A stretch of DNA of 64,000 bases from Minisyncoccota bacterium (lineage in GTDB: Bacteria > Patescibacteriota > Minisyncoccia > Phycocordibacterales > PALSA-1337). The position numbers and the translations under genes were made by a program. The notes beneath the pieces are model-generated. The model was not told the DNA's origin, made no database searches, and worked only from the letters and a program-made list of their open reading frames with translations. Below, piece by piece: positions 16,279 through 49,314 of this stretch; position 1 is the stretch's first letter; the number at the start of each line of letters is the position of its first letter. The DNA lies in the NCBI GenBank assembly GCA_041665325.1, contig JBAYJB010000001.1:61824-125823 (forward strand), given 5' to 3'.

Positions 16279-16707
16279 CTAGGCTTTGGGGACGATCTTC
16301 CAGGCAACCTTGCCTGTCTTGATGGCTTGACCGGGCATTACGCGCCATTCCGTGACATTGGCAGGCGGTGTGACCAGTTTATTAGTCGTACCCTCCTTCC
16401 AGTTTCGCGGATAGAGCGTGTATACCTTGGCCGGATCCTTATCCAGCCGGATCTGCCACCAGACATCATCGGTCAACAGATTTCCGACAACGCTCTTGGT
16501 GTTGTCGAGACAGATCACTTCCTTCCACTGGGTATCGTCGATATCGACGACGCCGGAGGTGGGGGAGGTGGCGACAGCGGCTTTCCGCTGGGAGCTGTTC
16601 TCTAGGAGATCGGGGTTGCGGATGGCCACCCCGACGCCGTAGACGATGAGGCCTAACAGCATCACGATGGCTAGAACCTTCATGGGATTGTTGGTGGTAG
16701 TTTTCAT
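16279..16707 (-). CDS. Hypothetical membrane-anchored protein, translationally coupled to the SPFH gene (ATGA overlap)
   Basis: 142 aa with N-terminal TM (VLAIVMLLGLIVYGVGVAI). A role as an NfeD-like partner is speculative. Confidence 0.45.
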   Translation of the reverse strand: MKTTTNNPMKVLAIVMLLGLIVYGVGVAIRNPDLLENSSQRKAAVATSPTSGVVDIDDTQWKEVICLDNTKSVVGNLLTDDVWWQIRLDKDPAKVYTLYPRNWKEGTTNKLVTPPANVTEWRVMPGQAIKTGKVAWKIVPKA

Positions 16708-17756
16708 CTTCCACCTCCCGCGATAGCGCCGGCTCGCTCCGTCCGTGGCTCATGATCGGTGTTTCCGACACTGCCGACGTTGACGATGCGCCCGCCTTGG
16801 GTGATTGTGACCTTCTTGTCCTTGGCCAGTCGCTCGAACATGATCTCGTCGCGGCAAGCTTTGGCACTGACATCGGGAAGGCCCGCATCTGTGTAGAGCT
16901 TGATCCGGGCGACCGTCTGCTTGTTGATGGTCTCGGTCTCCTTGAGCTCCGAAACCTGCTGCAGCTCCTCGATGACCCGATCCTCGTCGGCGGTGATGAC
17001 CGCCGTATTGATCGGGGTGAGCTCCACCTGGATCTTCTTGATCTTGCCACCCAGTCCGCGCGTGTCGTCAAGCTCGTCGGTATCACCAATCTGCCTATGC
17101 GCCTTGATTCGGGTGAGAAGCTTGACGGCGATGGCTGTCGGATGAGTCTCGGCCCATTTGTATGTCCGAGCGTTCTTCTCATCTTCGGTCAACCCCTCCT
17201 CCTCACCCACTACAATCTCCTGAACACCGACGGCGATGATATCGTTGACCTGGGCCCAATAGCCATCGAAGCCACCGATATCGAACCATTCCCAGAGCTT
17301 GTGAGCCCCGGATCTACGGTCCTTTTCTGGGACGCAGCTCCTATCATCGTCTTCATCCGGCATCACACTGACTGACACCATCCCCTTCATCCTGACGTTG
17401 TCGTGACAGCGCACGCTCGTGATGGGGAACGACTTGTCCAATTTCTTGATGTCGAAGGCAGTGATGCCGATGATGTCGAAACCGAACGGGTTGAGGCCGA
17501 GGGTCAGACCCTCGACCTTGCAATAGGTGCGTTGCCCCAACACTGTCAGGACACCGACCTGTCTCGGCTTGTCTCCGTCGCCCGGCGACAGGATCCTGAA
17601 TCCGGAGGCGATCAAGCCGCCGGGGATAAGGATCAACAGACCAGACCAGAACCAGCCGGAGAAGAGCAGATCCCCACCGATCCCGAATGACAAAAGCATC
17701 AGGAGCAGTAGAGCACTGCAGTATCTGTTCATCAATCCAGTGAATGGATTTTTCAT
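16704..17756 (-). CDS. SPFH/band-7 (stomatin/prohibitin-like) domain membrane protein
   Basis: N-terminal TM segments and a band-7 core (GVLTVLGQRTYCKVEGLTL.. FPITSVRCHDNVRMKGMVSVSV). Confidence 0.6.
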   Translation of the reverse strand: MKNPFTGLMNRYCSALLLLMLLSFGIGGDLLFSGWFWSGLLILIPGGLIASGFRILSPGDGDKPRQVGVLTVLGQRTYCKVEGLTLGLNPFGFDIIGITAFDIKKLDKSFPITSVRCHDNVRMKGMVSVSVMPDEDDDRSCVPEKDRRSGAHKLWEWFDIGGFDGYWAQVNDIIAVGVQEIVVGEEEGLTEDEKNARTYKWAETHPTAIAVKLLTRIKAHRQIGDTDELDDTRGLGGKIKKIQVELTPINTAVITADEDRVIEELQQVSELKETETINKQTVARIKLYTDAGLPDVSAKACRDEIMFERLAKDKKVTITQGGRIVNVGSVGNTDHEPRTERAGAIAGGGR

Positions 17757-18747: not shown

Positions 18748-20865
18748 TTAAGGACCGCGCCCGTTACTGCGTCGCCCACCGTTGTGAGAGGCGGGACCAT
18801 TGTTCCGGCCCGGAGCGGACCGGGATGGGCCGCCGCGGGGCTGGATGGTCGGCTGGCGAGGCGGCGAGTGTCTCGGGGTGTAGCCCCGATAACTGTTGCC
18901 GCCGTGCCGACTGTGCTGTGGGTATGAATACCCACGATGATGGCCAGGGCTGTAGCGGTAACCGTAACCGCTATTACCCCAACCATACTGCACGCCGACC
19001 GAACCGACGATCATCGGTGAGCTGGAGTAATATCCTCCAGTGTAACCGCCGTAGTAGGCCGCCGGTTGAGGTGCCTCATAGGCTTCCTCATAGACGACCT
19101 CTTGGATGACCTCCTCCGTCACTTGGGGCTCGCGGTATTGAAGCGCGACCTTGGGTTCGGGCGGGGGAGGAGTGACCTTCTGCTCGATGTTCACCGTGAC
19201 CTCCACTTTCTGCGGCTGCTGGTGATGCGGCCGGGGTTCTGGATCACACACCGGCGCGGGCGGCTTCGACTCGACGGCCTTTTGGAGGGGCAGTGAATCG
19301 TTGCCATAGACAGGCGGCGTTGCACCGGGAGGGAGCGGCGGCGGTTGCAAATGCTTCCGCTGCAATTCCTCCTGATCGATGCGCAGCCGGTTGAGGCTGT
19401 CCATGATCGCGGCTTGACCGGCCTTGAGGGCCGGATCATCGGAGGAGCTCCTCACTGTCTGCGCGGACTGGGTAGCCCGGGCGAACAGGAAGAACGCCGA
19501 CAACGCCACGACGGCCACGATGGCGAGGATGACCAGCCAGGCCGTGACATTGCTGTCGCGGCTCGACGGGGTCTTCGCCGGCTGGCTCGACGGGACTTCT
19601 GGAGAGGGCTTCGGTCCCGGCTTGTTGGCCAGCTCCGCCACCTTATTCTCGATCTCCTTGAGGCCGCCGATCATGGTCTCACCCTGTTTCTTGAGGCCGT
19701 CGACGCTGGTCTGCACATTGCCCACCCCCGTGATGACCTTGTCGGCCTTCCCGGAGAGGAGTTCGGTGCCACCAGCTACGGCTTCGCCGAGCTGGTCCAC
19801 GGACTCCTGGGTCGCCAGGATGGCGATCCGGGAGAGCACGAGATCCATCCTGCTCGGCGGCCTTGGGGCCGGGGGCGGGGTGGCGGGCTCGGTGGACGGT
19901 GCCGACGGCGGTGGCGTCGCTTTGGACGGCTGGGCCGCGGGCGGTTGCTCGACTTCGTCCCGCGGATCCGCGTGTTGGCGGACCCGGGGTTCCTGGGGCT
20001 TGATCTCGGCGACGTAATGGTCCGTCAGCACGAGCTGGTGCTCGACCGTCTCGCTGCGCTTGCCGTCGTTGCCGAGGGCAGTCGCTTTGATGGTGATCGT
20101 GCCGGTCTTGAGCAGGCCGGCCACCGGATTGAGTTTGCGCAGATGGCCGGTGATATACCGGGCACTGCCAACCTCGTGTTTATCGAGCGGGAACACCTGG
20201 TTCCCATCCTTGTCGACGCCGACGACCTCGAGGAATTTCGTGGTCACGGGATCGACGCGGATGGACAGGTTGAGGCCCCGGAGTTGGATGTCCGGCTTCT
20301 CGATCGTGATGTCCGGGCCTGAAGCCCGATCGCCACGACCCGCGTCCATGATCTCTCCGATGGTGGCCAGAGGAGCCGCCAGGGGAGCCGACGGTGTCTC
20401 CACGACCGGCACCGCCGGAACGACTTCCGCAACGGGTGCGGCCGCCGCTGTTGGGGCGACCACCGCCACAGGTGTGGCTTCGGTCGCCGGAGACAGTTCG
20501 CGCAGAACCTTGGCTTCGTCCGCGCTAAGCGCGAACTCGGCCCGGGCCGGCAGGCTGTCGCGGTATTTCTCGCCGTTGAAGGCGATGACCTCGACAACGT
20601 ATCTGCCCTCGAAGGCCTCGGCGAACGAACCCTTGAGGTTCATGAGATAGACGGCCGGGATATCCAGGCTGCCATCCTTGACCGGGAACGAGTTCTTTTC
20701 GGCTGGCCAGATCGAGACGTTAGCGATGATGTTCCGGACATTGATCCGGAATCCCCCACAATCAGGGGAGGACAAGTGGATCTTGAAGACCACTTCTCCG
20801 GTTGTTTCCCGAGAGACCATGATGGTCGGCGTCGGGAGCGCTTTCTTTTGTGATGACTTTGGCAT
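18748..20865 (-). CDS. Large hypothetical single-pass membrane protein with Pro-rich and Gly/Tyr/Arg-rich low-complexity regions
   Basis: 705 aa with a TM segment (WLVILAIVAVVALSAFFLF), PPxP-rich segments and a C-terminal YGGYTGGYY..GYGYRYSPGHHRGYSY..RGG tail. Confidence 0.55.
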   Translation of the reverse strand: MPKSSQKKALPTPTIMVSRETTGEVVFKIHLSSPDCGGFRINVRNIIANVSIWPAEKNSFPVKDGSLDIPAVYLMNLKGSFAEAFEGRYVVEVIAFNGEKYRDSLPARAEFALSADEAKVLRELSPATEATPVAVVAPTAAAAPVAEVVPAVPVVETPSAPLAAPLATIGEIMDAGRGDRASGPDITIEKPDIQLRGLNLSIRVDPVTTKFLEVVGVDKDGNQVFPLDKHEVGSARYITGHLRKLNPVAGLLKTGTITIKATALGNDGKRSETVEHQLVLTDHYVAEIKPQEPRVRQHADPRDEVEQPPAAQPSKATPPPSAPSTEPATPPPAPRPPSRMDLVLSRIAILATQESVDQLGEAVAGGTELLSGKADKVITGVGNVQTSVDGLKKQGETMIGGLKEIENKVAELANKPGPKPSPEVPSSQPAKTPSSRDSNVTAWLVILAIVAVVALSAFFLFARATQSAQTVRSSSDDPALKAGQAAIMDSLNRLRIDQEELQRKHLQPPPLPPGATPPVYGNDSLPLQKAVESKPPAPVCDPEPRPHHQQPQKVEVTVNIEQKVTPPPPEPKVALQYREPQVTEEVIQEVVYEEAYEAPQPAAYYGGYTGGYYSSSPMIVGSVGVQYGWGNSGYGYRYSPGHHRGYSYPQHSRHGGNSYRGYTPRHSPPRQPTIQPRGGPSRSAPGRNNGPASHNGGRRSNGRGP

Positions 20866-25741: not shown

Positions 25742-25854
25742 GGAGCAATGTGACATGACAATCTCGAGACACGGATATTTTCCTGCTGGAAAATTCCTCG
25801 TGCTCGCGCCAGTCGCGCTCGCAAGTTCTCGAGATTGTCATGTCACATTGCTCC
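25742..25854. repeat. Variable-stem/conserved-core palindromic element, copy 2 (28-bp perfect arms + 57-bp core)
   Basis: The arms GGAGCAATGTGACATGACAATCTCGAGA and TCTCGAGATTGTCATGTCACATTGCTCC are perfect reverse complements. The core is identical to copy 1. Confidence 0.85.
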
Positions 25855-25892
25855 CTCATTGCATTCTGCTTGGTTCAAGGTAAACTACAGGC

Positions 25893-30784: not shown

Positions 30785-30940
30785 ATGTCACAAGACCAAC
30801 TGATCCAAATCAAGAATAAAGAGACCGGTGAGACCTACTGGACCCGCAAGAACCGCAAGAAGGTCGAGCGCAAGATCGAACTCAAGAAATACTCGGCCAA
30901 GCTCCGTAAGCACGTGGTCTTCAAGGAGGCTAAGAAATAA
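30785..30940 (+). CDS. rpmG: 50S ribosomal protein L33
   Basis: TGETYWTRKNRKKVERKIELKKYSAKLRKHVVFKEAKK matches L33 (..Y.T.KN......KLELKK.....R.HV.FKE.K). Confidence 0.8.
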   Translation: MSQDQLIQIKNKETGETYWTRKNRKKVERKIELKKYSAKLRKHVVFKEAKK

Positions 30941-31051
30941 GCACCGAGAGAACATGACCTCGAACTGCACGGATATTTCCCTGCTGGGAAATTCCTCGTG
31001 CTCGCGCCAGTCGCGCTCGCAAGGCAGTTCGAAATCATGCTCTCTCGGTGC
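30941..31051. repeat. Variable-stem/conserved-core palindromic element, copy 3 (27-bp arms + 57-bp core)
   Basis: The arms GCACCGAGAGAACATGACCTCGAACTG and CAGTTCGAAATCATGCTCTCTCGGTGC pair with three transition mismatches. The core hairpin carries compensatory changes (ATTTCCC-TGCT-GGGAAAT versus ATTTTCC-TGCT-GGAAAAT in copies 1 and 2). Confidence 0.8.
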
Positions 31052-31072
31052 TATACTAGCGACGGCACGTAC

Positions 31073-32064: not shown

Positions 32065-32634
32065 ATGAGCATGTCATCCTACAAGGACAAGATCTTCGGT
32101 TTCTATCAGGACCATCGGCGCATGCCGAGCTATGCGGAGATCATGAAGCTCGTCGGTTTCAAGTCCAAGAATGCCGTCTATAAGCTGGTCGGCAAGCTCC
32201 TCGATGAGGGGGCGGTCCTCAAGGACGCGACTGGACGCCTCATCCCGACCAACCTCTTTGGCGAGATCCCACTCCTCGGGCTCGTCGAGGCCGGTTTCCC
32301 GACGGCGGCCGATGAAGTCAATCTCGACACCATGACACTCGACAGCTATCTCGTCGAGCGCAAGGAGCAGACCTACCTCCTCAAGGTCAAGGGCGACTCG
32401 ATGATCGACGCCGGCATCCAGGAGGGCGACTTAGTGTTGGCCGAGCGCGGCCGCGAACCTCGAGTGGGCGACATCGTGATCGCCGAGGTGGACGGGGGCT
32501 GGACCATGAAGTATTACCGCAAGAAGGGCAGTCAGGTCTACCTCGAGCCGGCCAACAAGGCCTACAAGAATATATACCCGGAGCAGGATCTCAACATTGC
32601 GGCAGTGGTCAAGGGGGTGGTCAGGAAGTATTGA
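32065..32634 (+). CDS. lexA: LexA repressor (S24 peptidase with N-terminal wHTH)
   Basis: HTH (YAEIMKLVGFKSKNAVYKLV), cleavage-site region (VEAGFPTAAD) and Ser/Lys dyad region (KVKGDSMIDAGIQEGDLVL ... W.MKYY.K). Confidence 0.8.
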   Translation: MSMSSYKDKIFGFYQDHRRMPSYAEIMKLVGFKSKNAVYKLVGKLLDEGAVLKDATGRLIPTNLFGEIPLLGLVEAGFPTAADEVNLDTMTLDSYLVERKEQTYLLKVKGDSMIDAGIQEGDLVLAERGREPRVGDIVIAEVDGGWTMKYYRKKGSQVYLEPANKAYKNIYPEQDLNIAAVVKGVVRKY

Positions 32635-32681: not shown

Positions 32682-33161
32682 ATGAAAAATAGAATAACTT
32701 CCGCGGTGGCAGTTTACGTGGTGTTGATGAACGATCACGATGAAGTCTTGCTCGCCCTGCGTGCCAATACTGGGTACCAGGATGGGGTGTGGCAGACCCC
32801 GGCCGGGCATGTCGAGATGGGCGAACTGCCGATCGAGGCCACCATCCGTGAGACCCTCGAAGAGGTCGGCATCCGGCTGACTGCGCTCGACCTCAAGCTG
32901 GTCCATGTCTCAGCCAGGCCTAAGCATGATGAGACGGGTAACCGCATCGATCTGTTCTTCCATGCCACGCATTGGGCCGGCGAGGTTGCCAATATGGAGC
33001 CACACAAGTGTGCCGAACTTCGCTGGTCTAAGCTCTCGGAACTGCCGGATAACATGACTCCGCATGTGCGGACCGGCATCATGAAGGGGCTCAATGGCGA
33101 ACTCTACTCGGAGTTCACGCTCGAACAGATGAAGAAGCTGCCCATCTACGGGCTAGTTTGA
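32682..33161 (+). CDS. NUDIX hydrolase
   Basis: Nudix box GHVEMGELPIEATIRETLEEVGI. Confidence 0.8.
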   Translation: MKNRITSAVAVYVVLMNDHDEVLLALRANTGYQDGVWQTPAGHVEMGELPIEATIRETLEEVGIRLTALDLKLVHVSARPKHDETGNRIDLFFHATHWAGEVANMEPHKCAELRWSKLSELPDNMTPHVRTGIMKGLNGELYSEFTLEQMKKLPIYGLV

Positions 33162-33176
33162 TCCAGTTCACCCATC

Positions 33177-33205
33177 GGGGCGGAAGCGATTCCGCCCCTT
33201 TTTGT
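33177..33205 (+). terminator. Intrinsic terminator GGGGCGGAAGCGATTCCGCCCC + T5 (module T1, copy a)
   Basis: A near-identical copy is at 34665..34693. Confidence 0.7.
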
Positions 33206-33306
33206 TGTATATGATCTGCCTTGCTTTTTCCTTGGATGCTAAGTAGTCTGCTTACAGACAAACCAATTTAGTATAACTGAACCCCAAAACCCAAAAGGAG
33301 CACATC

Positions 33307-34647
33307 ATGCCAACCAACGGCATCTCAACAGCCTCAAGCAAGCTCATCCGTGGCAGCACCTGGTCGATCATCAAGATCGAAGGGGCGGCCACAAATCAAA
33401 ATCGTGTGGAAGGCAAGGTCACCCTGTATAACTCCTCCGACCGGTCAAGTGATGTGAACGCCTGGACCGCTGTCAGGCACGGCACTGATCAGTGGGCCAT
33501 CACAGGCCAAGGCGCGCGCATGTCTACCGGCGAGCGAGTGCGCTCGCCATTCACATATCCGTTCGTTCTTATGAAGTCTGTCAATGACGATGTGAGGGCG
33601 GAACTGTCGCACTGGATACGCATCAACGGTAAGGCTCTCTTCAAACAAGGGTCCGAGTTGTATGACAGGAGGGTGCATGCATCCTCATCGGGCAATGGCA
33701 GGCTTCCTTCAAACGGAGATCTGCCGCTTACGGACACGTTGTCCAGTCAGCAGGCGACCGCCGCTGTCAATGCAACCGGGAGACTCGAAGTCATCGAAGT
33801 GCTAGTCTCGGAGATCCAGCCGTTCGAGGGTCAACCCCGTGAAGAATTCACCAAATCCGACTTGAGAGAGATCAGGGAGAGCCTGAGGCAGGAGGGCCAA
33901 CAGCAGATCATCTTCGTCACTCCGGTCAGCGGTGTGAGGGGGAAGAGATGGGAGCTTGTCGACGGCGAGCGCCGTTACCGCGGCGCCGTGGCGGCCGGTA
34001 TCCGGACCCTGACCGCCGTGGTCAAGCGCTTCAAGAACAAGGATGAGCAATTCTGGAGCTCATTCACCATGAATTGGAATCGGCGTGATCATACCCCGTA
34101 TGAGAATATCCGAGCTGTCGAACGGGCTATGAAGTCCGGCAAGACGGTTGCCCAGATTCGCACCGCCACCGGCCGTTCGGACTGCTGGGTCTATCAGAAC
34201 CTGCAGTTGCAAAATCTGGATCGCTCACTGCGCGCGCTTATGAAGCAGTCAGTCCCCAAAAGCGACCGCATGTCGTTCGGCATCGCCAACAGGCTTTCGC
34301 GGGTGCCGAGGGCCGAGGACCAGCTGCGTATCTGGAATGTGGCCAAGCAACAGCTCACTCCCAGCCTGCGCAAGCTCAAGGTGGATCAGCTGACTGCGGT
34401 CATCCTGGACAAACTGCCTCAGAAGGGCCGTAAGCGCAAACCTAGCGATAACGGGGTGCGAATCCTGCGTTGCCTACAGACGGCCGAAGCCGACCAGACC
34501 TTCATCAGTCGGACCACGGAAGAGGACCTGCGGGCATTCATGATGAATACCACCATGGACTTCAACCGCAGCGATCTTCTTCCTCGCGTCAGGGCGGTTG
34601 CCGCCGCCTGGGTGGAGCTCGCCAAGCGGGTCAGAAAGCTCAAGTGA
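33307..34647 (+). CDS. ParB/Srx-fold nuclease-like protein with HTH and N-terminal extra domain (not the partition ParB)
   Basis: ParB N-domain motifs (IEVLVSEIQPFEGQPR.. GVRGKRWELVDGERRYRGAVAAG) and an HTH (KTVAQIRTATGRSDCWVYQNLQL). Confidence 0.6.
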   Translation: MPTNGISTASSKLIRGSTWSIIKIEGAATNQNRVEGKVTLYNSSDRSSDVNAWTAVRHGTDQWAITGQGARMSTGERVRSPFTYPFVLMKSVNDDVRAELSHWIRINGKALFKQGSELYDRRVHASSSGNGRLPSNGDLPLTDTLSSQQATAAVNATGRLEVIEVLVSEIQPFEGQPREEFTKSDLREIRESLRQEGQQQIIFVTPVSGVRGKRWELVDGERRYRGAVAAGIRTLTAVVKRFKNKDEQFWSSFTMNWNRRDHTPYENIRAVERAMKSGKTVAQIRTATGRSDCWVYQNLQLQNLDRSLRALMKQSVPKSDRMSFGIANRLSRVPRAEDQLRIWNVAKQQLTPSLRKLKVDQLTAVILDKLPQKGRKRKPSDNGVRILRCLQTAEADQTFISRTTEEDLRAFMMNTTMDFNRSDLLPRVRAVAAAWVELAKRVRKLK

Positions 34648-34664
34648 CTCAGTAAGCATAGTTC

Positions 34665-34693
34665 GGGGCGGAAGCAATTCCGCCCCTTTTTTG
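34665..34693 (+). terminator. Intrinsic terminator GGGGCGGAAGCAATTCCGCCCC + T6 (module T1, copy b)
   Basis: Duplicate of 33177..33205 with a single mismatch in the loop. Confidence 0.7.
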
Positions 34694-34805
34694 TTGACAA
34701 GTTTTGAATACCTTGTAATGTCAGAAGCGAATCGTCCTTTGCAAACACGTCTGCATCTGGATTGAAGGTTCACTGTTAGTCAACAATAAATAGGAGATTG
34801 TTATC

Positions 34806-35525
34806 ATGAGCCCAAAAAAGCTCGATCTGTCCGCGTTCAGGATCCATGACCTCGCCGAAGCCCTCGACCAGAACTCATGTGTGATCAAACTGTGTCTTTG
34901 GGGCCCGTACCCCAATGTCGAGACCGGTTCTATCGATGACATCAAAACCATCGATGAGGCACGCAAGATGATGCGCAAAGCGCAATCCCGTGAGCGCCGC
35001 CGGCTCATCGCGAAGAAGTGGTTCGGACTGTGCACCTGCATGTCCGAGCTCCAAGGGCCATTCAGTGACTTTGGCTCTCCCGACCTCTATCATGACGACG
35101 ACCTCCGTCATTTCCGAGATACTCGCGCGAATGAGATGGCCGATAGCGCCATCAACAGTGATGATTTTGGGCTGATTTACGAGTGCTGGAGAGCCAGTCC
35201 TCACGGCTTCATCCAGGACAAGCTAACCTTGGCACTTCTCGAGAAGAGCCGTATCGTCTGTTGGGGCATGCTTGTGATCGATAATCTCGAGAAGACAGGT
35301 CGTATCCACAGCGAATCAACGCAGTGGATATACTGGGCCTTCATGCAGAAGATGGCAGAACTGGCTGACCGGAAACAGGCTAAGGAGCTTCTCGATGTCA
35401 TCCAGAGGCACCGCCGCTTCGATCACGAGAACCCGACAGTCTCCTTTCTTGTGCAGAAAGTGGCAACTGCTTATCGGCATAAGTTCTTCGGACCCATCTT
35501 ACGCGAAGGCGGCGTCGAGGTTTGA
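34806..35525 (+). CDS. Hypothetical protein (239 aa); C-terminus ..PILREGGVEV shared with gene 35912..36517
   Basis: No recognisable family. The 3' end and terminator form repeat module T2a (35493..35562). Confidence 0.45.
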   Translation: MSPKKLDLSAFRIHDLAEALDQNSCVIKLCLWGPYPNVETGSIDDIKTIDEARKMMRKAQSRERRRLIAKKWFGLCTCMSELQGPFSDFGSPDLYHDDDLRHFRDTRANEMADSAINSDDFGLIYECWRASPHGFIQDKLTLALLEKSRIVCWGMLVIDNLEKTGRIHSESTQWIYWAFMQKMAELADRKQAKELLDVIQRHRRFDHENPTVSFLVQKVATAYRHKFFGPILREGGVEV

Positions 35526-35532
35526 ATTGTTC

Positions 35533-35562
35533 AGGGGCGCTCCCACGGGCGCCTCTTTTTTG
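35533..35562 (+). terminator. Intrinsic terminator (GC hairpin GGGGCGCTCCCACGGGCGCC + T6), module T2 copy a
   Basis: A duplicate is at 36537..36567. Confidence 0.6.
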
Positions 35563-35577
35563 TTATACAATCAACGT

Positions 35578-35811
35578 ATGAAGGAAAAACTCATCACGGT
35601 GAGGGTCTCCGCTGGATCGCGTAGCGAATCTGTCGAGCGATTGGCCGCCGATATCTACAAAGTCCATGTTCGCACAGTACCCGAGAAGGGGAAGGCCAAT
35701 AAGCGCGTCCTTGAGCTTATCGCCGAGCATTTTGGCGTGGCGAAGTCGCGGTTGGAGATTGTGAGAGGAGGGGTGGGCAGGGAGAAGAAGATCAGGATTG
35801 ACATGGCCTAG
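35578..35811 (+). CDS. DUF167 (YggU-like) family protein
   Basis: MKEKLITVRVSAGSRSESVERLA..VHVRTVPEKGKANKRVLELIAEHFGVAKSRLEIVRGGVGREKKIRI is the characteristic DUF167 pattern. Confidence 0.6.
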   Translation: MKEKLITVRVSAGSRSESVERLAADIYKVHVRTVPEKGKANKRVLELIAEHFGVAKSRLEIVRGGVGREKKIRIDMA

Positions 35812-35911
35812 TTAAAATCGTATTTTAACTCCAGCTGCTCATTAAAAGAGTTGGTCAAGTTCCAACCGCTTGCGCATGAAGCGCGAGAACAGTGGCGGCT
35901 AAGGAGTACCC

Positions 35912-36517
35912 ATGAAAAATGACCTCAAGTTCAAGAAGACTACGCGTATCAGCTGGAACAGCTGGAACGACGGCACACCCGATAGAGATGCCTTTCCTGT
36001 GCCTCTGACATTGTCAAAAATACCGTTAGCGGCACGTGGATCATTCCTCGGTTTTGATATTCGCTCGTCTGTCTATCTCCACGGAGCGACCGTAGAGGCA
36101 ATCAGCGGAAAGCTTGGCAAGATCAATATAGTGATCGCTGCCCATCACAATGACAGGCCGCTTGGTGCCGGTGATCTTGTCAGTATTGCAAAGGGTTTGG
36201 CTACGCTCAACTCCGATATCTTGGAGTACCGAGGATTTCCTCTGAATAACCAAGGACCGTTCTTATTCGACTTGCGGGTTCCGAACGGCGCCGGATTCTG
36301 CGAGACTGCGGTCGAGCATGTCTCCAAAATCGTCACATTCCTTGGTGTCACAGGTGATCGTTGGTTCAGACATGCCATCAAGATTAAGCAATCGACGCTC
36401 GTTCTCGTGAAAGGGAACTGGATCGAATACGAGGATTATCTCGTCGGGAAGTTCCCGATCCGTCTGCCTAACTGCGCCGGAGAGCCCATCTTGCGTGAAG
36501 GCGGCATCGAAGCTTGA
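35912..36517 (+). CDS. Hypothetical protein (201 aa); C-terminus ..PILREGGIEA shared with gene 34806..35525
   Basis: No recognisable family. The 3' end and terminator form repeat module T2b (36486..36567). Confidence 0.45.
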   Translation: MKNDLKFKKTTRISWNSWNDGTPDRDAFPVPLTLSKIPLAARGSFLGFDIRSSVYLHGATVEAISGKLGKINIVIAAHHNDRPLGAGDLVSIAKGLATLNSDILEYRGFPLNNQGPFLFDLRVPNGAGFCETAVEHVSKIVTFLGVTGDRWFRHAIKIKQSTLVLVKGNWIEYEDYLVGKFPIRLPNCAGEPILREGGIEA

Positions 36518-36536
36518 AGTGTGATTTGGATCGTTC

Positions 36537-36567
36537 AGGGGCGCTCTCACGGGCGCCTCTTTTTTGT
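36537..36567 (+). terminator. Intrinsic terminator, module T2 copy b
   Basis: GGGGCGCTCTCACGGGCGCC + T6. Confidence 0.6.
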
Positions 36568-36585
36568 TTGTGCTAGGATTCTTGC

Positions 36586-36909
36586 ATGCCACTCATCAAT
36601 CTAGAATATGACAAGGAGATAGTTTCAGACGGGGATATTAGGATTCTATCTCAAGCTGTTCGTGACATTGTTTCAGAAACTACGGGCATAGAAGACGTCT
36701 TTGTCTATGCCAATGCTTCACAGATACGTATCAGAGTCGCTCCAGTAGAGATATTTGTCAGGATGACAGCCAAGAAGATCAAGAATGAAGACGAACTTAT
36801 AGGTACTATTAAATCTAAACTTAAGGAATGGAAACAAGGCTCCCGTTTTAAGCACCCGATAAATTTGACTCTAATACCCATGAATTGGAAGGTTGAGATA
36901 GGGATATAA
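36586..36909 (+). CDS. Hypothetical protein, possibly tautomerase-superfamily-like (starts Met-Pro); AT-rich gene
   Basis: MPLINLEYDKEIVSDGDIRILSQAVRDIV.. The Pro1 and length resemble 4-OT-like proteins, but the assignment is weak. Confidence 0.3.
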   Translation: MPLINLEYDKEIVSDGDIRILSQAVRDIVSETTGIEDVFVYANASQIRIRVAPVEIFVRMTAKKIKNEDELIGTIKSKLKEWKQGSRFKHPINLTLIPMNWKVEIGI

Positions 36910-36914
36910 CCAAC

Positions 36915-37499
36915 ATGTCCCTCACCCTCATCTTCGAAGCCCATGGCACGACATCTGATAACGAAGCCCACCTATCGTCGGGCTGGTATGATGTGGCCCT
37001 ATCTCCCAAGGGCGAACAGCAGTCGCGGGAGATGGGCGAGCGTTACAGGGACGACCATTTCGACGCCATATTCTGCTCGGACTTACAGCGGGCCTGGAGA
37101 AGCGCAGAGATTGCATTTTGTAAGAATAAAGTTGGAAAGCTTGTTACAGACAATGATTTTCTTAAGGCGGAATGTAAGTTTCCAATAATAACCGATGCGC
37201 GCCTGCGTGAATGCAATTATGGCGACCTGACGCAGAAACCGAGCGAGCTCGTGGACGCGGAGAAGACGAAGCGGATCAGCGTGCCATTCCCGAACGGCGA
37301 GAGCTACGAGGAGACCAATGCTCGGATGAAGTCGTTCCTAGAAGACCTGAAGAGGGACTATGACGGCAAGAGGGTCATGGTCATCGGCCACCGCGCGACG
37401 CAGTACGGCATCGAGGCGTATGTCAATGGTATGACCGTCGAAGAATGTCTGGCCAAACCATTCAAATGGGAGCCGGGGTGGGTTTACAAAATCAAATAG
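36915..37499 (+). CDS. Histidine phosphatase superfamily (phosphoglycerate mutase-like) protein; its 3' end forms att-like repeat copy 0
   Basis: LIFEAHGTTSDNEAHL (degenerate RHG motif) and VMVIGHRATQYGIE (second His motif). Confidence 0.55.
   Translation: MSLTLIFEAHGTTSDNEAHLSSGWYDVALSPKGEQQSREMGERYRDDHFDAIFCSDLQRAWRSAEIAFCKNKVGKLVTDNDFLKAECKFPIITDARLRECNYGDLTQKPSELVDAEKTKRISVPFPNGESYEETNARMKSFLEDLKRDYDGKRVMVIGHRATQYGIEAYVNGMTVEECLAKPFKWEPGWVYKIK
37458..37499 (+). repeat. att-like repeat R3, copy 0 (3' end of phosphatase gene: CCATTCAAATGGGAGCCGGGGTGGGTTTACAAAATCAAATAG)
   Basis: Related copies are at 38206..38249 and 38971..39028. Confidence 0.55.
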
Positions 37500-37513
37500 G
37501 GTAAACTATCGGT

Positions 37514-38068
37514 GTGAATCCCGAAAAGAAACAGTTACAGAATATTGCTTTTGTTGATGGCCAGAATCTCCATCTTGGTACAAGGGGGAACTCTTGGGCC
37601 ATTGATCACATAAAGTTCAGAACATACCTCAAAGAGAAATATAAGATTGACGAGGCCTATTATTTCCTCGGTTTTATATCTACAGGTGAACAGGATCTTT
37701 ACGATAGGCTTCAAAAAGCTGGATTTATACTTAGTTTTCGTGAGCACCCAGCAAATCTGAAGGGTAGTAAGAAGGGAAATGTTGATTCAGATATCATTTT
37801 TAGCCTTATGAAGAAGCTAGTTGAGAATGAGCCGTTTGATAAAGCCTTCATCATATCGGGTGATGGGGATTATAAAAAATTAGTCGATTTTCTCATAAAA
37901 AGAGTTAAATTTGGGAAAATGCTTTTTCCAAACAATGGTAATGCATCATCACTTTATAAAGCGTTAGGTGGTGAATACTTCGATTTTCTTGATTCTCCGG
38001 ATGTGAGGGCAAAGATTGAATATACCCATGTATCGCGTAGTGCTCCCATAATGAAAAAGGCCCCTTAG
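37514..38068 (+). CDS. NYN-domain (LabA/DUF88, PIN-like) protein; GTG start; AT-rich
   Basis: IAFVDGQNLHLGTRG.. and FIISGDGDYKKLVDFL are the NYN signature. Confidence 0.65.
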   Translation: MNPEKKQLQNIAFVDGQNLHLGTRGNSWAIDHIKFRTYLKEKYKIDEAYYFLGFISTGEQDLYDRLQKAGFILSFREHPANLKGSKKGNVDSDIIFSLMKKLVENEPFDKAFIISGDGDYKKLVDFLIKRVKFGKMLFPNNGNASSLYKALGGEYFDFLDSPDVRAKIEYTHVSRSAPIMKKAP

Positions 38069-38205
38069 GTATTGCACCGTTCGGGTCCTTCTTCGTAGTT
38101 ATACATGACGAATATACCCGTTTTATATTACAAAGTCAAGTTTTGTGGGTGTGGATTATTTCGCTATTTAAAGGCTAGAATATGTAGGTATCCACACTAG
38201 GCCGA

Positions 38206-38249
38206 GATTTCAAATGGCAGCTGTGGTGGAAGTATGAGGTGAGGTAACG
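38206..38249 (+). repeat. att-like repeat R3, copy 1 (GATTTCAAATGGCAGCTGTGGTGGAAGTATGAGGTGAGGTAACG)
   Basis: Shares TTCAAATGGCAGC.G.GGTGG..TATGA..TGAGGTAA with copy 2 and TTCAAATGG.AGCCGGGGTGGGT with copy 0. Confidence 0.55.
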
Positions 38250-38334
38250 TCCTTGCATTTTGGTCTAATCTGTGGTTTCATCATTCATGAACTTAGCTGA
38301 AGAATTTAACCAATGGAAAAGGAGATATAGCTCT

Positions 38335-38919
38335 ATGAAAATGTCAGATTTCGCGGCTGTAACAGCCGTAGACCCACACGAGGAAACTGCGTTAGCTTAC
38401 CAGTATCCCCTTCCTCTAATCAGGACGAACTTCGTCAAACGTTTCCTCCTGAAGCGTGGTATACCTGCCAACGAGTATTATCACATGGATGTGTTCGACT
38501 GTGCTCGCAGCCCGCAATCACATGTAGGTCCATTCGTGAACGCGATCGATTTCTTGGTGCCTGACGGCACGATCGTGCTTGCGGCGCGTGATGGAGCGAT
38601 CATCGACATCAAAGAGGATTCTTCCGAATGGGGGGACAATCCCCGGTTCCGCGATAAGCTCAACTACGTGACTGTTGATCACGGAAATGGCGAGTTCTCG
38701 CAGTACTGCCACCTACGCAAAGGATCGGTCGCGGCTCTCGGTCTCAGTCTCAATCGGCTTGTCTCGGCCGGCCAGCAGATCGCCGTGGTTGGCAAAACCG
38801 GCTGGACCGATCGAGATCACCTGCACTTCATCGTCTTCAAGAAGGTTGAGGGCGGCGATGGCTTCAAGAGTCTGAAGATTCAATTCATCGGTAGTACCGA
38901 TTTTGACCCAAGCGTCTAA
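38335..38919 (+). CDS. M23 family (LytM-like) metallopeptidase
   Basis: HxxxD (HMDVFD), VTVDHGNGEFSQYCHL, GKTGWTDRDHLHF. The start at 38335 has an AAGGAG RBS 10 nt upstream. The longer ORF from 38272 overlaps repeat copy 1. Confidence 0.7.
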   Translation: MKMSDFAAVTAVDPHEETALAYQYPLPLIRTNFVKRFLLKRGIPANEYYHMDVFDCARSPQSHVGPFVNAIDFLVPDGTIVLAARDGAIIDIKEDSSEWGDNPRFRDKLNYVTVDHGNGEFSQYCHLRKGSVAALGLSLNRLVSAGQQIAVVGKTGWTDRDHLHFIVFKKVEGGDGFKSLKIQFIGSTDFDPSV

Positions 38920-38970
38920 GGGTCGATCCAACCACTCTCCCGGGTGACTGTAATGGTCATCCGGTTTTTT

Positions 38971-39028
38971 ATTCAAATGCATTTCAAATGGCAGCCGGGG
39001 TGGGTGTATGAATTGAGGTAATAAAACC
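38971..39028 (+). repeat. att-like repeat R3, copy 2 (ATTCAAATGCATTTCAAATGGCAGCCGGGGTGGGTGTATGAATTGAGGTAATAAAACC)
   Basis: Includes an internal partial duplication, ATTCAAATG. Confidence 0.55.
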
Positions 39029-39090
39029 TAAAACTCGGTTCGTTTGATTTAAATAAAAGTTATCGTTATACGTTTCTCAAATATCCTTAT

Positions 39091-39118
39091 TTGACATAAG
39101 AAGTATGAGGAATATAAT
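39091..39118 (+). promoter_or_regulatory. Consensus sigma70 promoter TTGACA-N16-TATAAT driving the AT-rich three-gene operon
   Basis: Both hexamers are perfect. The ATG at 39150 is about 25 nt downstream of the predicted TSS. Confidence 0.6.
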
Positions 39119-39149
39119 ATAACAATAACTATAAATATACTCTAACAAC

Positions 39150-39536
39150 ATGGCGTTAAAAGACCTAATACAAAATACAAATTCAACAGAGAAGGATTTA
39201 GAAAATATTCTAAAGAGTAGAGTAAAACTGCTCAAGATCAATGACCTTTACTCTGTCCACATAGAAAGGTCATTTTCTAAGACATTGGATCAAAAAAACA
39301 AAATTCTTTTCTATTTGGCAGGCAAACTAGCTTGGCAAATCTTAGAGAAGAATCAGATTTGGGTAAAACCAAAGGAGTTAGAATCTGAGCTTGGTATTAG
39401 TGGGGGTACAATAAGACCAAGTCTCCTTGCTTTCAAAAAGCATAAGTTTGTTGAGTATAACAAGAAAGATAAAGGCTATCGATTAACAGGAGTTGGTTTG
39501 TCTGAGCTTATAAAGTTCCAAGAGGAGCTTGAGTAA
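39150..39536 (+). CDS. Hypothetical winged-helix (wHTH) protein, gene 1 of the AT-rich operon
   Basis: 128 aa. PKELESELGISGGTIRPSLLAFKKHKFVEYNKKDKGYRLTGVGLSEL resembles MarR/ArsR-type wHTH. About 33% GC. Confidence 0.45.
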   Translation: MALKDLIQNTNSTEKDLENILKSRVKLLKINDLYSVHIERSFSKTLDQKNKILFYLAGKLAWQILEKNQIWVKPKELESELGISGGTIRPSLLAFKKHKFVEYNKKDKGYRLTGVGLSELIKFQEELE

Positions 39537-39541
39537 ATATC

Positions 39542-39970
39542 ATGGATAACGAAACGCTAAAAGAGATAAACAAAAAGCTTGATAAGATACTTTTTATTCT
39601 TGGTGGGCAAGTAAAAGAACCTATGAGAAGTAGGAGCCCCTCATCAGTAAAGTCACTACAAAAAGGTACTACTTTTGACGCGCACACCATTAACTTTAAT
39701 CAAAATAATCGGGCATTTTTCAAAAAATATATTGGAGACATGACCGGTCCAGAGAAGTATACTCTGACCTTGGCTTTTTGCGCAAAAGGGAAAATAGGTC
39801 TACCTGTAGAATCAGAAAAAATAAATAACCTCTGGAATAAACTGTTTGTAATTTTCGGAGGTAAGCTAACTTCACGTACTTATGCGACTAGGGCAAAAGA
39901 AAAGGGTTGGATCGACTCTAATAAGCATGGTGAATATTTTCTAAGAGATCAGTGGGCAGCGATATTCTAA
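39542..39970 (+). CDS. Hypothetical protein, gene 2; carries a domain paralogous to the N-terminus of gene 3
   Basis: MTGPEKYTLTLAFCAKGKIGLPVESEKINNLWNK...YATRAKEKGWID aligns with MTGEEKFLALGVIISQEKIDLDISASDVRSKWSK...YYRAESKGWVI of the next gene. Confidence 0.45.
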   Translation: MDNETLKEINKKLDKILFILGGQVKEPMRSRSPSSVKSLQKGTTFDAHTINFNQNNRAFFKKYIGDMTGPEKYTLTLAFCAKGKIGLPVESEKINNLWNKLFVIFGGKLTSRTYATRAKEKGWIDSNKHGEYFLRDQWAAIF

Positions 39971-39977
39971 GTAAACC

Positions 39978-40742
39978 ATGTTTGATTATAAACACAAAAG
40001 TTTATTAGCTTTATTAAGCGGACTACCCTTAGATTCAATGACTGGGGAAGAAAAGTTCCTTGCGTTAGGAGTGATAATTTCTCAGGAAAAGATTGATCTC
40101 GATATCTCTGCTTCAGATGTAAGGAGTAAGTGGTCTAAGGGTTTACTTGGGAAATATAATCCAGGTTATTACTACCGGGCCGAATCAAAAGGGTGGGTAA
40201 TTCCCGATGATGCAGAGCATAATAAGTTTATTGTTACCCCTGAGGGTTTTAAACATCTTAAAACCACCATAGGCCATGAAGAGAAAGACGAACTACTAAA
40301 TCCAAAAGAAGTAAGAAAGACAGGTAAACTTTTTATTTTCAACAAATCAAGCGCGTACAGCTTCGATAAGTTTATTAGGAATATTCTAAAAAATGCTAAA
40401 AGTAGGGTTTTAATAGCAGATTCATATGTAGATGAGACAATATTTGATAATCATCTTGAAACTTTACCCAACGACCTAATTATAAAAGTCCTCTTTATGA
40501 ATGACTCTGGCTCATTCGGCGCAAGAATGAAAAGATTCAAGGTTCAATTTAAGAAATCAGATTTCAAAAAGTATAAAGATTTACACGATAGATTTATTAT
40601 TGTAGATGATATTGCTTATATTATAGGGCCATCAATAAAAGATGCTGCGGCCAATAGCCCAGCAATTGTTGTGGGTCTTAATCAACAGGAAACTTTGCTC
40701 ATTAGTAATTTTTTTAGCGACATTTGGAAATTAGGCAAATAG
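39978..40742 (+). CDS. Hypothetical two-domain protein, gene 3: N-terminal domain shared with gene 2, plus a C-terminal PLD-like (HKD-variant HxR..D..GPS) putative nuclease domain
   Basis: The C-terminal ..KYKDLHDRFIIVDDIAYIIGPSIKD fits HxK-x4-D-x6-G(S)xN with K replaced by R, and there is a preceding RVLIADSYVD strand. This is an inference from motif spacing only. Confidence 0.4.
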   Translation: MFDYKHKSLLALLSGLPLDSMTGEEKFLALGVIISQEKIDLDISASDVRSKWSKGLLGKYNPGYYYRAESKGWVIPDDAEHNKFIVTPEGFKHLKTTIGHEEKDELLNPKEVRKTGKLFIFNKSSAYSFDKFIRNILKNAKSRVLIADSYVDETIFDNHLETLPNDLIIKVLFMNDSGSFGARMKRFKVQFKKSDFKKYKDLHDRFIIVDDIAYIIGPSIKDAAANSPAIVVGLNQQETLLISNFFSDIWKLGK

Positions 40743-40768
40743 ATTTTGTTTGCTGATATACTGTCAGC

Positions 40769-41923
40769 ATGGAACCCCTCGCCAACAAAATACGACCACA
40801 GACGCTCAAGACCTTCGTCGGTCAGGAGCATCTGGTCGGTCCGGGCAAGCCTCTGCGCAAAGCTATCGAGGACAAGCATCTCTTCTCGTTCATCTTCTGG
40901 GGGCCGCCAGGAGTCGGCAAGACCACGCTCGCCCGCATCTATGCCCGTGCCCTCGATGCCCGGCTCTATGAGCTCTCGGCCGTCTCGGCGGGCAAGGACG
41001 ACATCCGCAAGATCGTGGAGGCGCCGGATACGCTCATGGATGCTCGGCCCAAGGTCCTATTCCTCGACGAGATCCACCGCTTCAACAAGGCTCAGCAGGA
41101 CTTCCTGTTGCCGTATGTGGAGTCGGGCAAGCTGACCCTCATCGGCGCTACGACCGAGAATCCTTCGTTTGAGATCATATCGGCTCTCTTGTCGCGCTGT
41201 AGGGTATTCGTGCTCAAGTCCTTGTCCGAGGAAGACCTCCGGGCCATCGTGAAGAGCACCAAGCTAAAGGTGCCCAAGGAGGCTCTGGAATGGCTGGTGG
41301 CACTCGCGAACGGCGATGCCAGGATCGCCATCACGGCTCTCGAGAATTGCGAGCGCCTCTACGGCGCGGTCACGCTCGCTCACCTCAAGGATACCTTCGA
41401 GCACGCCTTCATCCGCTTCGACAAGAAGGGCGAGGAGCACTACGACACTATTTCTGCGTATATAAAGAGTATGAGGGCTGGCGATGCTGATGCGGCTCTT
41501 TACTACCTCGCACGAATGATTGAGGGCGGTGAAGATCCGAAGTTTATAGCTAGGAGGATGGTCATATTTGCCTCGGAGGACATCGGACTGGCTCAGCCGA
41601 CGGCGCTGGTAGTCGCCAATGCTGTCTTTGCGGCCGTCGATGTCATCGGCATGCCTGAAGCGCAGATCAATCTGGCGCATGGCACGGCCTACTTGGCTCT
41701 AGCCGCCAAAGACCGTAGCGCTCATGACGGCTATTTCGAGGCCCTCGATGATGTGAAGAAGACGGGGAACTTGCTTGTGCCTCTCAAGATCAGGAATGCA
41801 CCGACCAAGCTCATGAAGGAGATGGGTTATGGCAAAGACTATAATAAGTACGATAAGAGCGGATATCTACCGGAGAAACTGAAAGGGAAGAGGTATCTAA
41901 AGACGAAAAAGAAGGGGGATTGA
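40769..41923 (+). CDS. rarA: Replication-associated recombination protein A (MgsA/RarA AAA+ ATPase)
   Basis: [46 protein letters not shown]. Confidence 0.85.
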
Positions 41924-42533: not shown

Positions 42534-42923
42534 ATGTTAAAACCAAACCCGATCGCCAGATTCACCCGCCACAAGGAAAACATTTGGCGTAATTATGTGC
42601 AGTTGAGCGCTCGCGACGAAACCCTCGTCCCGGTGCTCGAATTCGCGGCCCGCTGGGCCTGTGGCATGGAACGGCGGTTGGATCACTTCGGTGAACCCCT
42701 CGACAAATCAGCTGTCGCTCAAGCCACCACAGCTGACCCGGAATCGCTCACGCCCGACATGCTCGACATGGTCGTGCATATCCTGTGGGAAGTTGATTGG
42801 CTTTACGCCAGGATGCTGGTGATGTGGTATCGCACGCCGATTGGCCAGGACTTCCGTGTCTCGCTCGACAACGCTCGTCCGGCAGTCGTGACAATCCAAC
42901 CCTCAACAAGCCCCGCATCATGA
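42534..42923 (+). CDS. Hypothetical protein (paralog pair member 2)
   Basis: FAARWACGMERRLDHFG and WYRTPIGQDFRVSLDNARPAVVTI. ATG at 42534 is preferred over the TTG at 42498. Confidence 0.45.
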   Translation: MLKPNPIARFTRHKENIWRNYVQLSARDETLVPVLEFAARWACGMERRLDHFGEPLDKSAVAQATTADPESLTPDMLDMVVHILWEVDWLYARMLVMWYRTPIGQDFRVSLDNARPAVVTIQPSTSPAS

Positions 42924-44631: not shown

Positions 44632-45141
44632 TCATTCCTTTTGCATGGAAATTTCTTTGATAAATTCCAAGCTATTTCTACAAACTCTAGTGACAAACTT
44701 TCTTTTTCCAGTTTTCTGAACGGAGCTCTGAGTCGTACTCCTGTACCCCAGGCTATCGATCATGATTTGCACATCCTGAGAAAGTCCGTGGATGATGGTG
44801 GTAAAATTTGCGTAAGTATATGATCTATCTTTATAAACCGACCCGTCAGTTTCAAATAAGCCTCGTAAGCAATTACGAACATATTCCTTTTTGCCAAATA
44901 CCCACGCAGGAACCCTGATGTTCTGTTCAAACTTTGAACCAGCAAGAGCCTTCCAACCCAGAATTGCTTCCAGCTCATTCGAATATACACATACATTGGA
45001 AAGATTGCCATTTCCAATAGCGAAACCTATGACATAGGCAGTGTTTGAACTACGGTGATCCATTGTGCCAGAGGCGGGACTTGCACCCGCAAGCCTTTCG
45101 GCGACCGATTTTGAGTCGATTGTGTTTGCTAATTTCACCAC
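44632..45141 (-). CDS. Free-standing LAGLIDADG-family homing-endonuclease-like protein (motif 1 degenerate, motif 2 intact); GTG start
   Basis: YVIGFAIGNGNLS (acidic residues replaced) and NCLRGLFETDGSVYKD (canonical). The motifs are only about 56 aa apart, so the N-terminal half looks truncated or degenerate. Confidence 0.55.
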   Translation of the reverse strand: MVKLANTIDSKSVAERLAGASPASGTMDHRSSNTAYVIGFAIGNGNLSNVCVYSNELEAILGWKALAGSKFEQNIRVPAWVFGKKEYVRNCLRGLFETDGSVYKDRSYTYANFTTIIHGLSQDVQIMIDSLGYRSTTQSSVQKTGKRKFVTRVCRNSLEFIKEISMQKE

Positions 45142-45186
45142 TCTGGCCTAGGCACAGTCTACAATAACTTATGTTAAAATACACGC

Positions 45187-49240: not shown

Positions 49241-49314
49241 ACGTAGTCTATGTTATCAGACCATATTTTTCGGGTTTTGACTTAGAAATTTTTGAGGCCC
49301 GGAGACATACCTCA
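49241..49314 (+). repeat. Conserved intergenic motif, copy C (CAGACCATATTTTTCGGGTTTTGACTTAGAAATTTTTGAGGCCCGGAGACATACCTC) in the dprA-topA intergenic region
   Basis: Same orientation as copies A and B, although here it is antisense to the flanking genes. Confidence 0.55.

Follow-up and report, generated by a model that had tools for sequence, protein, structure and literature searches.

How does a run of small genes, several of them ending in copies of the same terminator or the same coding tail, come to lie between two genes that adjoin in related bacteria? The question is raised by a 64-kb stretch of DNA (the window) on a 305-kb contig of a metagenome-assembled genome (MAG) annotated as Candidatus Paceibacterota, of the candidate phyla radiation (CPR), in which lexA and rarA are separated by an array of units of one or two genes, with direct repeats of three families, T1, T2 and R3, at unit boundaries. 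With slightly better than even confidence, the array is attributed here to serial Campbell-type insertion at the lexA|rarA junction, in which T2, R3 and probably T1 are the junction repeats and host recombination acting on DNA of relatives is the favoured agent.

Repeats at unit boundaries between lexA and rarA

The 31–42 kb region begins with tRNA-Trp, p153 (153 aa) and p68 (68 aa), and continues as listed below, with all listed genes on the + strand.

32065..32634, +, lexA (Peptidase_S24), the conserved left flank, 66–81% identical in 80 related loci
32682..33161, +, Nudix hydrolase gene, first gene of the array (Pfam NUDIX, 4e-20; PADLOC candidate family PDC-S07, 4e-13)
33175..33207, +, T1a, hairpin loop GCGA, serving as the Nudix terminator
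33307..34647, +, 446-aa ParB_N-domain gene (Pfam ParB_N, 8e-15), with T1a and T1b on either side
34663..34696, +, T1b, hairpin loop GCAA
34806..35525, +, 239-aa gene of unknown function, its last 10 codons within T2a
35493..35564, +, T2a: tail PILREGGVEV and stop, 7-nt spacer, terminator hairpin, T-run
35578..35811, +, DUF167 (YggU-like) gene (Pfam DUF167, 2e-18), starting 13 nt after T2a and opening the T2a–T2b unit
35912..36517, +, 201-aa gene with remote homologues only, its last 10 codons within T2b
36485..36568, +, T2b: tail PILREGGIEA and stop, 19-nt spacer, hairpin
36586..36909, +, 107-aa gene (GC 39%), starting 18 nt after T2b
36915..37499, +, histidine-phosphatase (HisPhos) gene (Pfam His_Phos_1, 1e-29), its 3' end being R3a (37459–37499)
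37500..38247, +, NYN-domain cassette (GC 39%), ending in orphan R3b (38207–38247, which reads FKWQLWWKYEVR and stop)
38248..39021, +, peptidase M23 cassette with its own terminator, ending in orphan R3c (38981–39021, which reads FKWQPGWVYELR and stop)
39022..40750, +, block of three genes of 128, 142 and 254 aa (GC 34%), the 254-aa protein matching PADLOC candidate family PDC-S05 (2e-20)
40769..41923, +, rarA (mgsA; assigned by Pfam), the conserved right flank, 80–81% identical in L008, L046, L057 and L142

The 80 related loci were obtained by a LexA-based scan of metagenome contigs, and contigs are referred to here by L numbers. In the window, the interval between lexA and rarA measures 8.1 kb and holds 12 genes. 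In L046 only 2 nt separate the same two genes, and in L057 about 40 nt; in a relative sequenced at JGI, a single 203-aa gene stands between them; and in L142 (GCA_023264475.1) the interval holds a ParB-like gene, a DUF2726 gene and a small minus-strand open reading frame (ORF) of 82 aa, the last lying between lexA and the ParB-like gene. The closest relative, L008, has 7.2 kb in the interval, with genes mostly different from those of the window. The lexA|rarA junction is a gene-insertion hotspot of this Paceibacterota genome. The preliminary description had proposed an array of acquired genes at 33–41 kb, downstream of tRNA-Trp and lexA, and had suggested comparing the tRNA-Trp-to-rarA interval across relatives. 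The array stands, given that lexA and rarA adjoin in relatives or have one or two genes between them, and its hotspot is lexA|rarA. The connection with the tRNA does not hold, because p153, p68 and lexA are syntenic in relatives and separate tRNA-Trp from the first inserted gene; tRNA-Trp is therefore not the target, and a tRNA-Trp-targeted island is ruled out. The GC content is 0.56 in the flanks against 0.34–0.39 in several of the units, ranging within the interval from 0.57 down to 0.34, and these sharp differences among units indicate that their interiors are foreign.

T2 is a direct repeat of 72 and 84 nt, in which 66 of the 72 aligned bases are identical and T2b is longer by 12 nt, the addition lying between stop codon and hairpin. 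These 12 nt repeat, in diverged form, the TTGAAnTGT stretch that is found there, a partial re-duplication that looks like the result of an imprecise crossover. The hairpin part of T2 has only two sites in the window, where none would be expected by chance. That two unrelated proteins end in the same codons and the same terminator, as had been noticed in the preliminary description, is confirmed, with the coordinates of T2b corrected to 36485–36568: a BLASTP comparison of the 239-aa protein (NCBI locus tag WCV82_00575) with the 201-aa protein (WCV82_00585) finds only PILREGG(V/I)E in common, and a shared segment of 9 residues excludes homology over the full length. Of the five substitutions in the T2 tail, three fall on third codon positions and are synonymous.

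The homologues of these proteins show where the families end without T2. The 239-aa protein has a single homologue in 5.8 billion proteins, P0002 (57% identity) of the JGI relative, which aligns as far as YRH and stops one residue later (YRHY and stop), 12 residues short of the window protein, which adds KFFG and then PILREGGVEV. The 201-aa protein appeared ORFan-like in a word-indexed search; an exhaustive HMMER search revealed a small family, in which ten homologues stop 1–4 residues after KYPIxx and three have unrelated longer tails, while the window protein runs 16 residues past the family end (PNCAGE followed by PILREGGIEA). Since homologues in both families end 12–16 residues earlier, the T2 tail is foreign to both genes, and T2 is therefore a shared 3' module joined to two unrelated gene bodies that read into it. 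The idea that a shared 3' end and terminator mark a recombination joint thus holds for T2, the tail being native to neither family. In the JGI relative, P0002 is encoded beyond rarA, not between rarA and lexA, and the 239-aa gene family is therefore itself mobile between the two hotspots.

T1 can be written TCGGGGCGGAAGC(G/A)ATTCCGCCCC-T5/6-GTTG, and is a direct repeat of 33 and 34 nt with one loop mismatch and one extra T. The near-identical terminators first seen around the ParB-like gene are borne out, at 33175–33207 and 34663–34696 when the 2 nt preceding the stem and the GTTG that follows the T-run are included; there, too, the copies agree, as they do in all nine stem pairs. The hairpin has an energy of about −19 kcal/mol and, with up to 3 mismatches allowed, its 22 nt are found at only two sites in the window, against a chance expectation of 0.01. 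All four copies of T1 and T2 look like intrinsic terminators, with 9–10 stem pairs, a 4-nt loop and a T5–6 run, and they follow their stop codons at distances of 13–15 nt (T1a, T1b), 7 nt (T2a) and 19 nt (T2b). A repeat scan of the whole window found no other duplicated terminators. The expectation that T1 and T2 might recur at other cassette boundaries was disappointed in the window and in 790 kb of relatives, whose loci were searched for repeats by blastn-short; among the 80 related loci, degenerate patterns for the T2 tail and for T1 matched the source organism and no other, and scans of IMG/VR gave no matches for T1, the T2 hairpin or R3.

R3 comprises the last 13 codons of the HisPhos gene, including the stop, and occurs at 37459, 38207 and 38981, the second and third copies closing the NYN and M23 units as orphans. 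HisPhos homologues of 62–66% identity lie in L008 and L012. When compared with the HisPhos 3' ends of relatives, R3c is the best match (34/39 nt) and R3a, the copy in use, the least (28–29/39). As the distal orphan is the most like the ends of relatives, it would seem that incoming units brought a replacement gene end; had a target-site duplication simply drifted, the reverse pattern would be expected. Directly before R3c there is a partial copy, ATTCAAATGC, similar to the slip in T2b, and this too fits an imprecise crossover. Duplicated 3' ends of target genes, present as direct repeats, are thus found in both R3 (three HisPhos ends) and T2 (two gene ends), and the sequences of T1, T2 and R3 are mutually unrelated.

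The same scar is found in relatives. In L012, the HisPhos 3' end (18875–18933) is repeated 1.2 kb downstream at 20076–20134, around a low-GC unit of two genes, and the 3' end of an inositol-monophosphatase (IMPase) gene (16330–16393) is repeated 1.24 kb downstream at 17574–17636. The second IMPase end directly abuts a degraded HisPhos 5' fragment, so that the order reads IMPase-[NYN]-HisPhos5'::IMPase3'-[other gene]-HisPhos, and this fusion has the structure that would be expected when a circularised allelic fragment integrates by one crossover. In L035, two orphan R3 copies surround a reverse-oriented gene, and L024 has one orphan; the HisPhos gene is on neither contig. The duplicated gene ends around other cassettes in L012 and L035 are independent cases of the scar seen in the window. 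A 67-nt repeat near lexA in L051 is of another kind, an ordinary miniature inverted-repeat transposable element (MITE) that brackets core genes and is unrelated to the window repeats. It has terminal inverted repeats GTCATTCCCGCGAAGGCGGGAAT, occurs at 11200–11315 and 14778–14865, and brackets cysS and a CorA-like gene.

How the units may have been inserted

In the favoured reading, units of one or two genes would have been inserted serially at the lexA|rarA junction, each incoming piece of DNA carrying its own copy of a short resident gene 3' end or terminator. A single crossover at that short sequence, equivalent to Campbell-type integration of a circular or circularised fragment, would leave the shared sequence as a direct repeat on either side of the new unit, with the gene upstream of each copy reading into the repeat. 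Recombination between the repeats would free mini-circles, which could serve again as donors. Host homologous or homeologous recombination, acting on DNA taken up from relatives and needing no recombinase that travels with the units, is favoured because there are several unrelated repeats, because their lengths vary, and because of the slipped joints and the fusion joint of L012. The circular intermediate and the mechanism of a single crossover are inferred, as are the enzyme and the succession and direction of the events.

No integrase, transposase or other recombinase was found in the window, where all ORFs of at least 180 aa and the called genes were screened. The Phage_integrase family was likewise not found by that screen, though for a cluster of attC sites lacking integron-integrases (CALIN) no such enzyme would be required. 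The units themselves contain no integrase or excisionase, their cargo being ParB_N, DUF167, the 201-aa protein, NYN or M23. Between 32.6 and 40.8 kb, on both strands, there are no attC-like core pairs (RYYYAAC...GTTRRRY, 40–130 nt apart), against a mean of 1.5 in shuffled sequence, and the absence of such pairs together with that of IntI from the window rules out an integron. Terminal inverted repeats were not found at the ends of the window units, and the repeats are 33–84 nt long and diverged, which excludes a transposon or MITE with target-site duplication. Repetitive extragenic palindromic or bacterial interspersed mosaic elements (REP/BIME) number tens to hundreds per genome and go with a RAYT transposase; in the 64 kb, T1 and T2 have two copies each, and no Y1 transposase was seen there. 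Xer-dependent (dif/pdif) modules have 28-bp dif-like XerC/XerD sites at their borders; the geometry of T1, with 9-nt arms and a 4-nt spacer, is not dif-like by look, no search with a dif model having been made. Rfam gave no matches other than tRNAs.

Several points weigh against serial insertion by host recombination. The homologies are short (33–84 nt, 88–97% identity) and would be a poor substrate for RecA-type recombination. The low-GC block at 39.0–40.75 kb (39022–40750) has no flanking repeat that could be found, so the signature is missing from some units. T1 and T2 were found nowhere else, and mobility is therefore argued from one locus and by analogy with R3. The ParB-like gene and T1b look ancestral in their slot, so the notion of a ParB cassette inserting at the Nudix terminator may be wrong, and the direction of the event that made T1a is unclear. 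No circular form, empty site or alternative junction was seen in the assembled sequences that the analysis covered. The common left edge and the conservation of the non-coding R3 orphans fit a sequence-specific site better than a random circularisation.

This last point bears on the most serious rival, in which the repeats are true attachment sites and a site-specific recombinase acts on them in trans, its gene lying elsewhere in the genome; the cassettes would be integrase-less passengers comparable to cargo-only island remnants or Xer-dependent modules. The R3 orphans of the window and L035 keep the left edge TTCAAATGG, the 23-nt core TCAAATGGCAGCCGGGGTGGGTG is conserved in orphans that are non-coding, and the tandem arrays, with the newest-looking copy nearest the gene, resemble those at tRNA-targeted islands. 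It is because most R3 orphans share this edge, conserved though non-coding, that the trans-acting enzyme has to be taken seriously. The L012 orphan, however, reaches 17 nt farther upstream, and the length of the repeat varies with the event (41 nt in the window and 59 nt in L012). No tyrosine or serine recombinase was found among the screened genes of the window or in any unit; the mutually unrelated T1, T2 and R3, and the L012 IMPase end besides, would each need to be recognised; T2b has its 12-nt slip; and the L012 joint, of an internal HisPhos fragment with an IMPase 3' end, is unlike the product of a precise enzyme. On this evidence a trans-acting recombinase is unlikely.

Local events without incoming homologous DNA are a further alternative, either as long target-site duplications made by staggered breaks on either side of a hairpin or gene end, or as tandem duplications with the interior later replaced. 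The repeats are direct and coincide exactly with the edges of the units, T1 and T2 are centred on hairpins that could extrude as cruciforms and be cut on both flanks, and L012 has real partial gene duplications. Such an origin is nevertheless distinctly improbable, since the functional R3 copy is the most divergent and the distal orphan the most ancestral-looking, and the sharp GC differences between units point to foreign interiors. The predominance of synonymous changes in the T2 tail suggests divergence while coding in different genomes, and is by itself not significant.

For T1 alone, the two hairpins might be independent generic terminators, in which case there was no duplication and T1 would say nothing about cassette insertion. 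A scan of 185,579 genomes (596 Gb, the source MAG not being among them) found the exact T1 21-mer in 53 genomes from unrelated phyla, with a T-rich tail in 38 of them, and the core GCGGAAGCAATTCCGC also terminates unrelated genes in L029 and L009/L010. ParB-like orthologues (44% identity) hold the same slot downstream of lexA in L142 and in L066/L093 (L066 being a Hainich groundwater contig and L093 being CAYHNH010000003.1), and they are followed by T1-like hairpins, CGGGGCGGAAGCAATTCCGCCCTTTTTT in L066 and CAGGCGGAAGCGATTCCGCCTGTTTTT in L142. T1b is thus the ancestral terminator of that gene, inherited with it, and T1a alone is the extra copy. The initial view of T1 as a special module has to be given up on these grounds, and a hairpin so generic is neither a dedicated module nor a parS site; as evidence for insertion, T1 is weaker than T2. 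Yet the 53 matches are few for 596 Gb, and in none of the 53 genomes does a second copy occur within the same 8-kb locus, so that, at a base rate of 53 in 185,579 genomes, two copies 1.5 kb apart were most likely copied and not convergent. They have in common, moreover, the 2 nt before the stem as well as the stem pairs, and a Nudix homologue (50% identity) that follows lexA in L047 has a terminator unrelated to T1. An independent origin of the two hairpins is accordingly given little credence, and T1 is probably a junction repeat of cassette insertion.

An artefact of metagenome assembly, in which alternative cassettes of co-existing strains were stitched in tandem through shared repeats, is very hard to sustain. 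The source is indeed a MAG, and one assembly, that of SRR6484324 in Logan, breaks inside R3a (L002 ends at 37490 and L146 starts at 37464, an overlap of 27 nt), which suggests a branch in the assembly graph and is compatible with a possible population variant at that joint. The ENA contig ERZ27249449 k141_1209124 and two Logan contigs (SRR6484324), however, are 100% identical to the window across all repeats, so that not one base differs among three assemblies produced by different assemblers, and relatives from other samples have the same architecture. None of the repeat-copy pairs of T1, T2 and R3 has an exact shared run of at least 31 nt, which makes a repeat-induced loop in the graph unlikely. 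Exact-protein look-ups of window genes matched the same organism only. Just as implausible are T1 palindromes serving as parS-like binding sites for the ParB_N protein encoded between them: T1 is a near-perfect 22-nt palindrome kept after orthologues though the proteins are only 44% identical, but the orthologues have a single copy, only downstream of the gene, more distant homologues carry unrelated hairpins, the 21-mer has a ParB-like neighbour in L093 only and in none of the other 52 genomes, and the T-run makes T1 an ordinary terminator. A search of IMG/VR with the ParB-like protein gave no matches.

Other features of the window and its relatives

The 39022–40750 block encodes a winged helix-turn-helix-like protein of 128 aa, a protein of 142 aa, and a phospholipase D-like protein of 254 aa. 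From their matches to PDC-S05 and PDC-S07, the 254-aa and Nudix genes suggest that the hotspot may be a small defence island. Downstream of rarA there is a second variable stretch (about 42534–42923), with genes for a 126-aa protein, a Tad4-family protein (PF25186) and a 111-aa protein; in the JGI relative, the same place is occupied by the 239-aa homologue (P0002) and a DoxX gene. A free-standing LAGLIDADG_3 gene lies between miaA and parB (44632–45138), and its call overlaps tRNA-Leu(caa) at 45065–45147.

Two further repeat families are present in the window. The first has a 57-nt core, CACGGATATTTTCCTGCTGGAAAATTCCTCGTGCTCGCGCCAGTCGCGCTCGCAAG, in three copies that are 95–100% conserved (5448–5504, 25770–25826 and 30968–31024; with flanks, about 5420–5535, 25742–25855 and 30940–31052). 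The core is enclosed by an inverted repeat of about 28 bp that differs from copy to copy, so that the long outer stem covaries completely, and in the third copy the inner hairpin has changed in a compensatory way (ATTTTCC/GGAAAAT to ATTTCCC/GGGAAAT). Copies related to these follow the L33 gene in L066/L093 and L142, and there was no Rfam match; the appearance is that of a structured element, RNA or DNA, not described before. The second is a 54-nt repeat with TTGACTTAGAAATTTTTGAG at 8010–8063, 9119–9172 and 49258–49311, two of its copies preceding a metallo-beta-lactamase-fold gene and gyrA and the remaining one lying at another locus; it may represent a promoter or operator that these loci have in common.

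Among the relatives, L075 has a perfect 38-nt palindrome, GAGGGTAACCCTAGCCCAGCTGGGCTAGGGTTACCCTC, twice (14–51 and 1342–1379, 100% identical), bracketing p68–lexA, and a pair of hairpins similar to it occurs in L062 at 9558 and 10257. L093 is a GTDB representative that bears the label 'uncultured Candidatus Saccharibacteria', and its identity with L066 is 99.9%. Since it shares the L33–p68–lexA–ParB-like synteny with the Paceibacterota window, its taxonomic label may be questionable.

Meaning of the array and comparison with known systems

Members of the CPR, or Patescibacteria, have tiny genomes with few recognisable mobile elements. Even so, a sizeable share of acquired genes has been reported for these bacteria, up to 13% of genome length in a study that does not mention repeats or hotspots (PMC12455944). 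If gene ends and terminators suffice for the capture and release of single genes, they would provide a concrete and testable route of gene flow in uncultured bacteria, and would explain why flexible genes cluster at fixed junctions. It is tempting, and no more than tentative, to go further and suppose that Patescibacteria of this clade run an integron-like cassette economy without the machinery of integrons, in which gene 3' ends and terminators act as portable attachment sequences, and genes leave as mini-circles, pass among relatives by DNA uptake and re-enter at the same sequence. A few fixed junctions, lexA|rarA and the HisPhos 3' end among them, would then accumulate variable, possibly defence-related genes. 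On the practical side, a C-terminal tail and terminator common to unrelated ORFs can be the sign of a recombination joint, into which gene callers will extend a protein without warning.

Integrons and CALINs resemble the window in having same-strand, mostly single-gene units that end in a repeat, which can overlap the end of the ORF, and a cargo of unknown or defence-like function. They differ from it in that the window has neither IntI nor R''/R' core pairs, and its repeats are terminators or coding tails of different sequence families. The microcin H47 island of E. coli is described as having short direct repeats and no site-specific recombinase of its own, with RecA-independent recombination between the repeats (PMC3191183, PMC5426353). 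Unlike the cassette array of the window, this element is one island of 13 kb, and the repeats that flank it are neither gene ends nor terminators.

Islands that carry an integrase and insert at the 3' ends of tRNA or protein genes duplicate the target end as direct repeats, the element supplying the replacement and the ancestral end becoming the distal orphan. The arrays of the window likewise grow next to a gene whose 3' end is repeated. The window units, on the other hand, measure 0.75–1.5 kb, hold one or two genes and lack both integrase and excisionase; there are several different target sequences in the space of 6 kb, and the joints are imprecise.

In T4-type phages, the promoter-early stem-loop (PeSL) cassettes are described as terminator-containing repeats between small non-essential genes, forming hyperplastic regions; recombination between neighbouring repeats, as set out there, inserts, deletes or swaps single genes and frees mini-circles, with no recombinase in the cassette (Arbiol et al. 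2010, PMC2839356). The window shares with this system short terminator-containing repeats between small genes, often of unknown function, and the lack of a recombinase in the cassette. It differs in that PeSL is one promoter-plus-terminator motif with many copies per phage genome, whereas the window has several unrelated pairs in two or three copies each; T2 and R3 are coding 3' ends in a bacterial chromosome, and the mini-circles are only proposed in the window. PeSL cassettes of T4-type phages are also the subject of Comeau et al. 2014 (PMC4122927). Shuffling of the PeSL type by one motif is excluded for the window, given that T1 and T2 have two copies each, bear no likeness to one another, and are found nowhere else in the window or the 790 kb of relatives. 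In its function the array nonetheless most resembles PeSL shuffling and the tandem islands at gene 3' ends, and it is read here as the accretion, at a hotspot in a CPR chromosome, of repeat-bounded cassettes that have no recombinase of their own.

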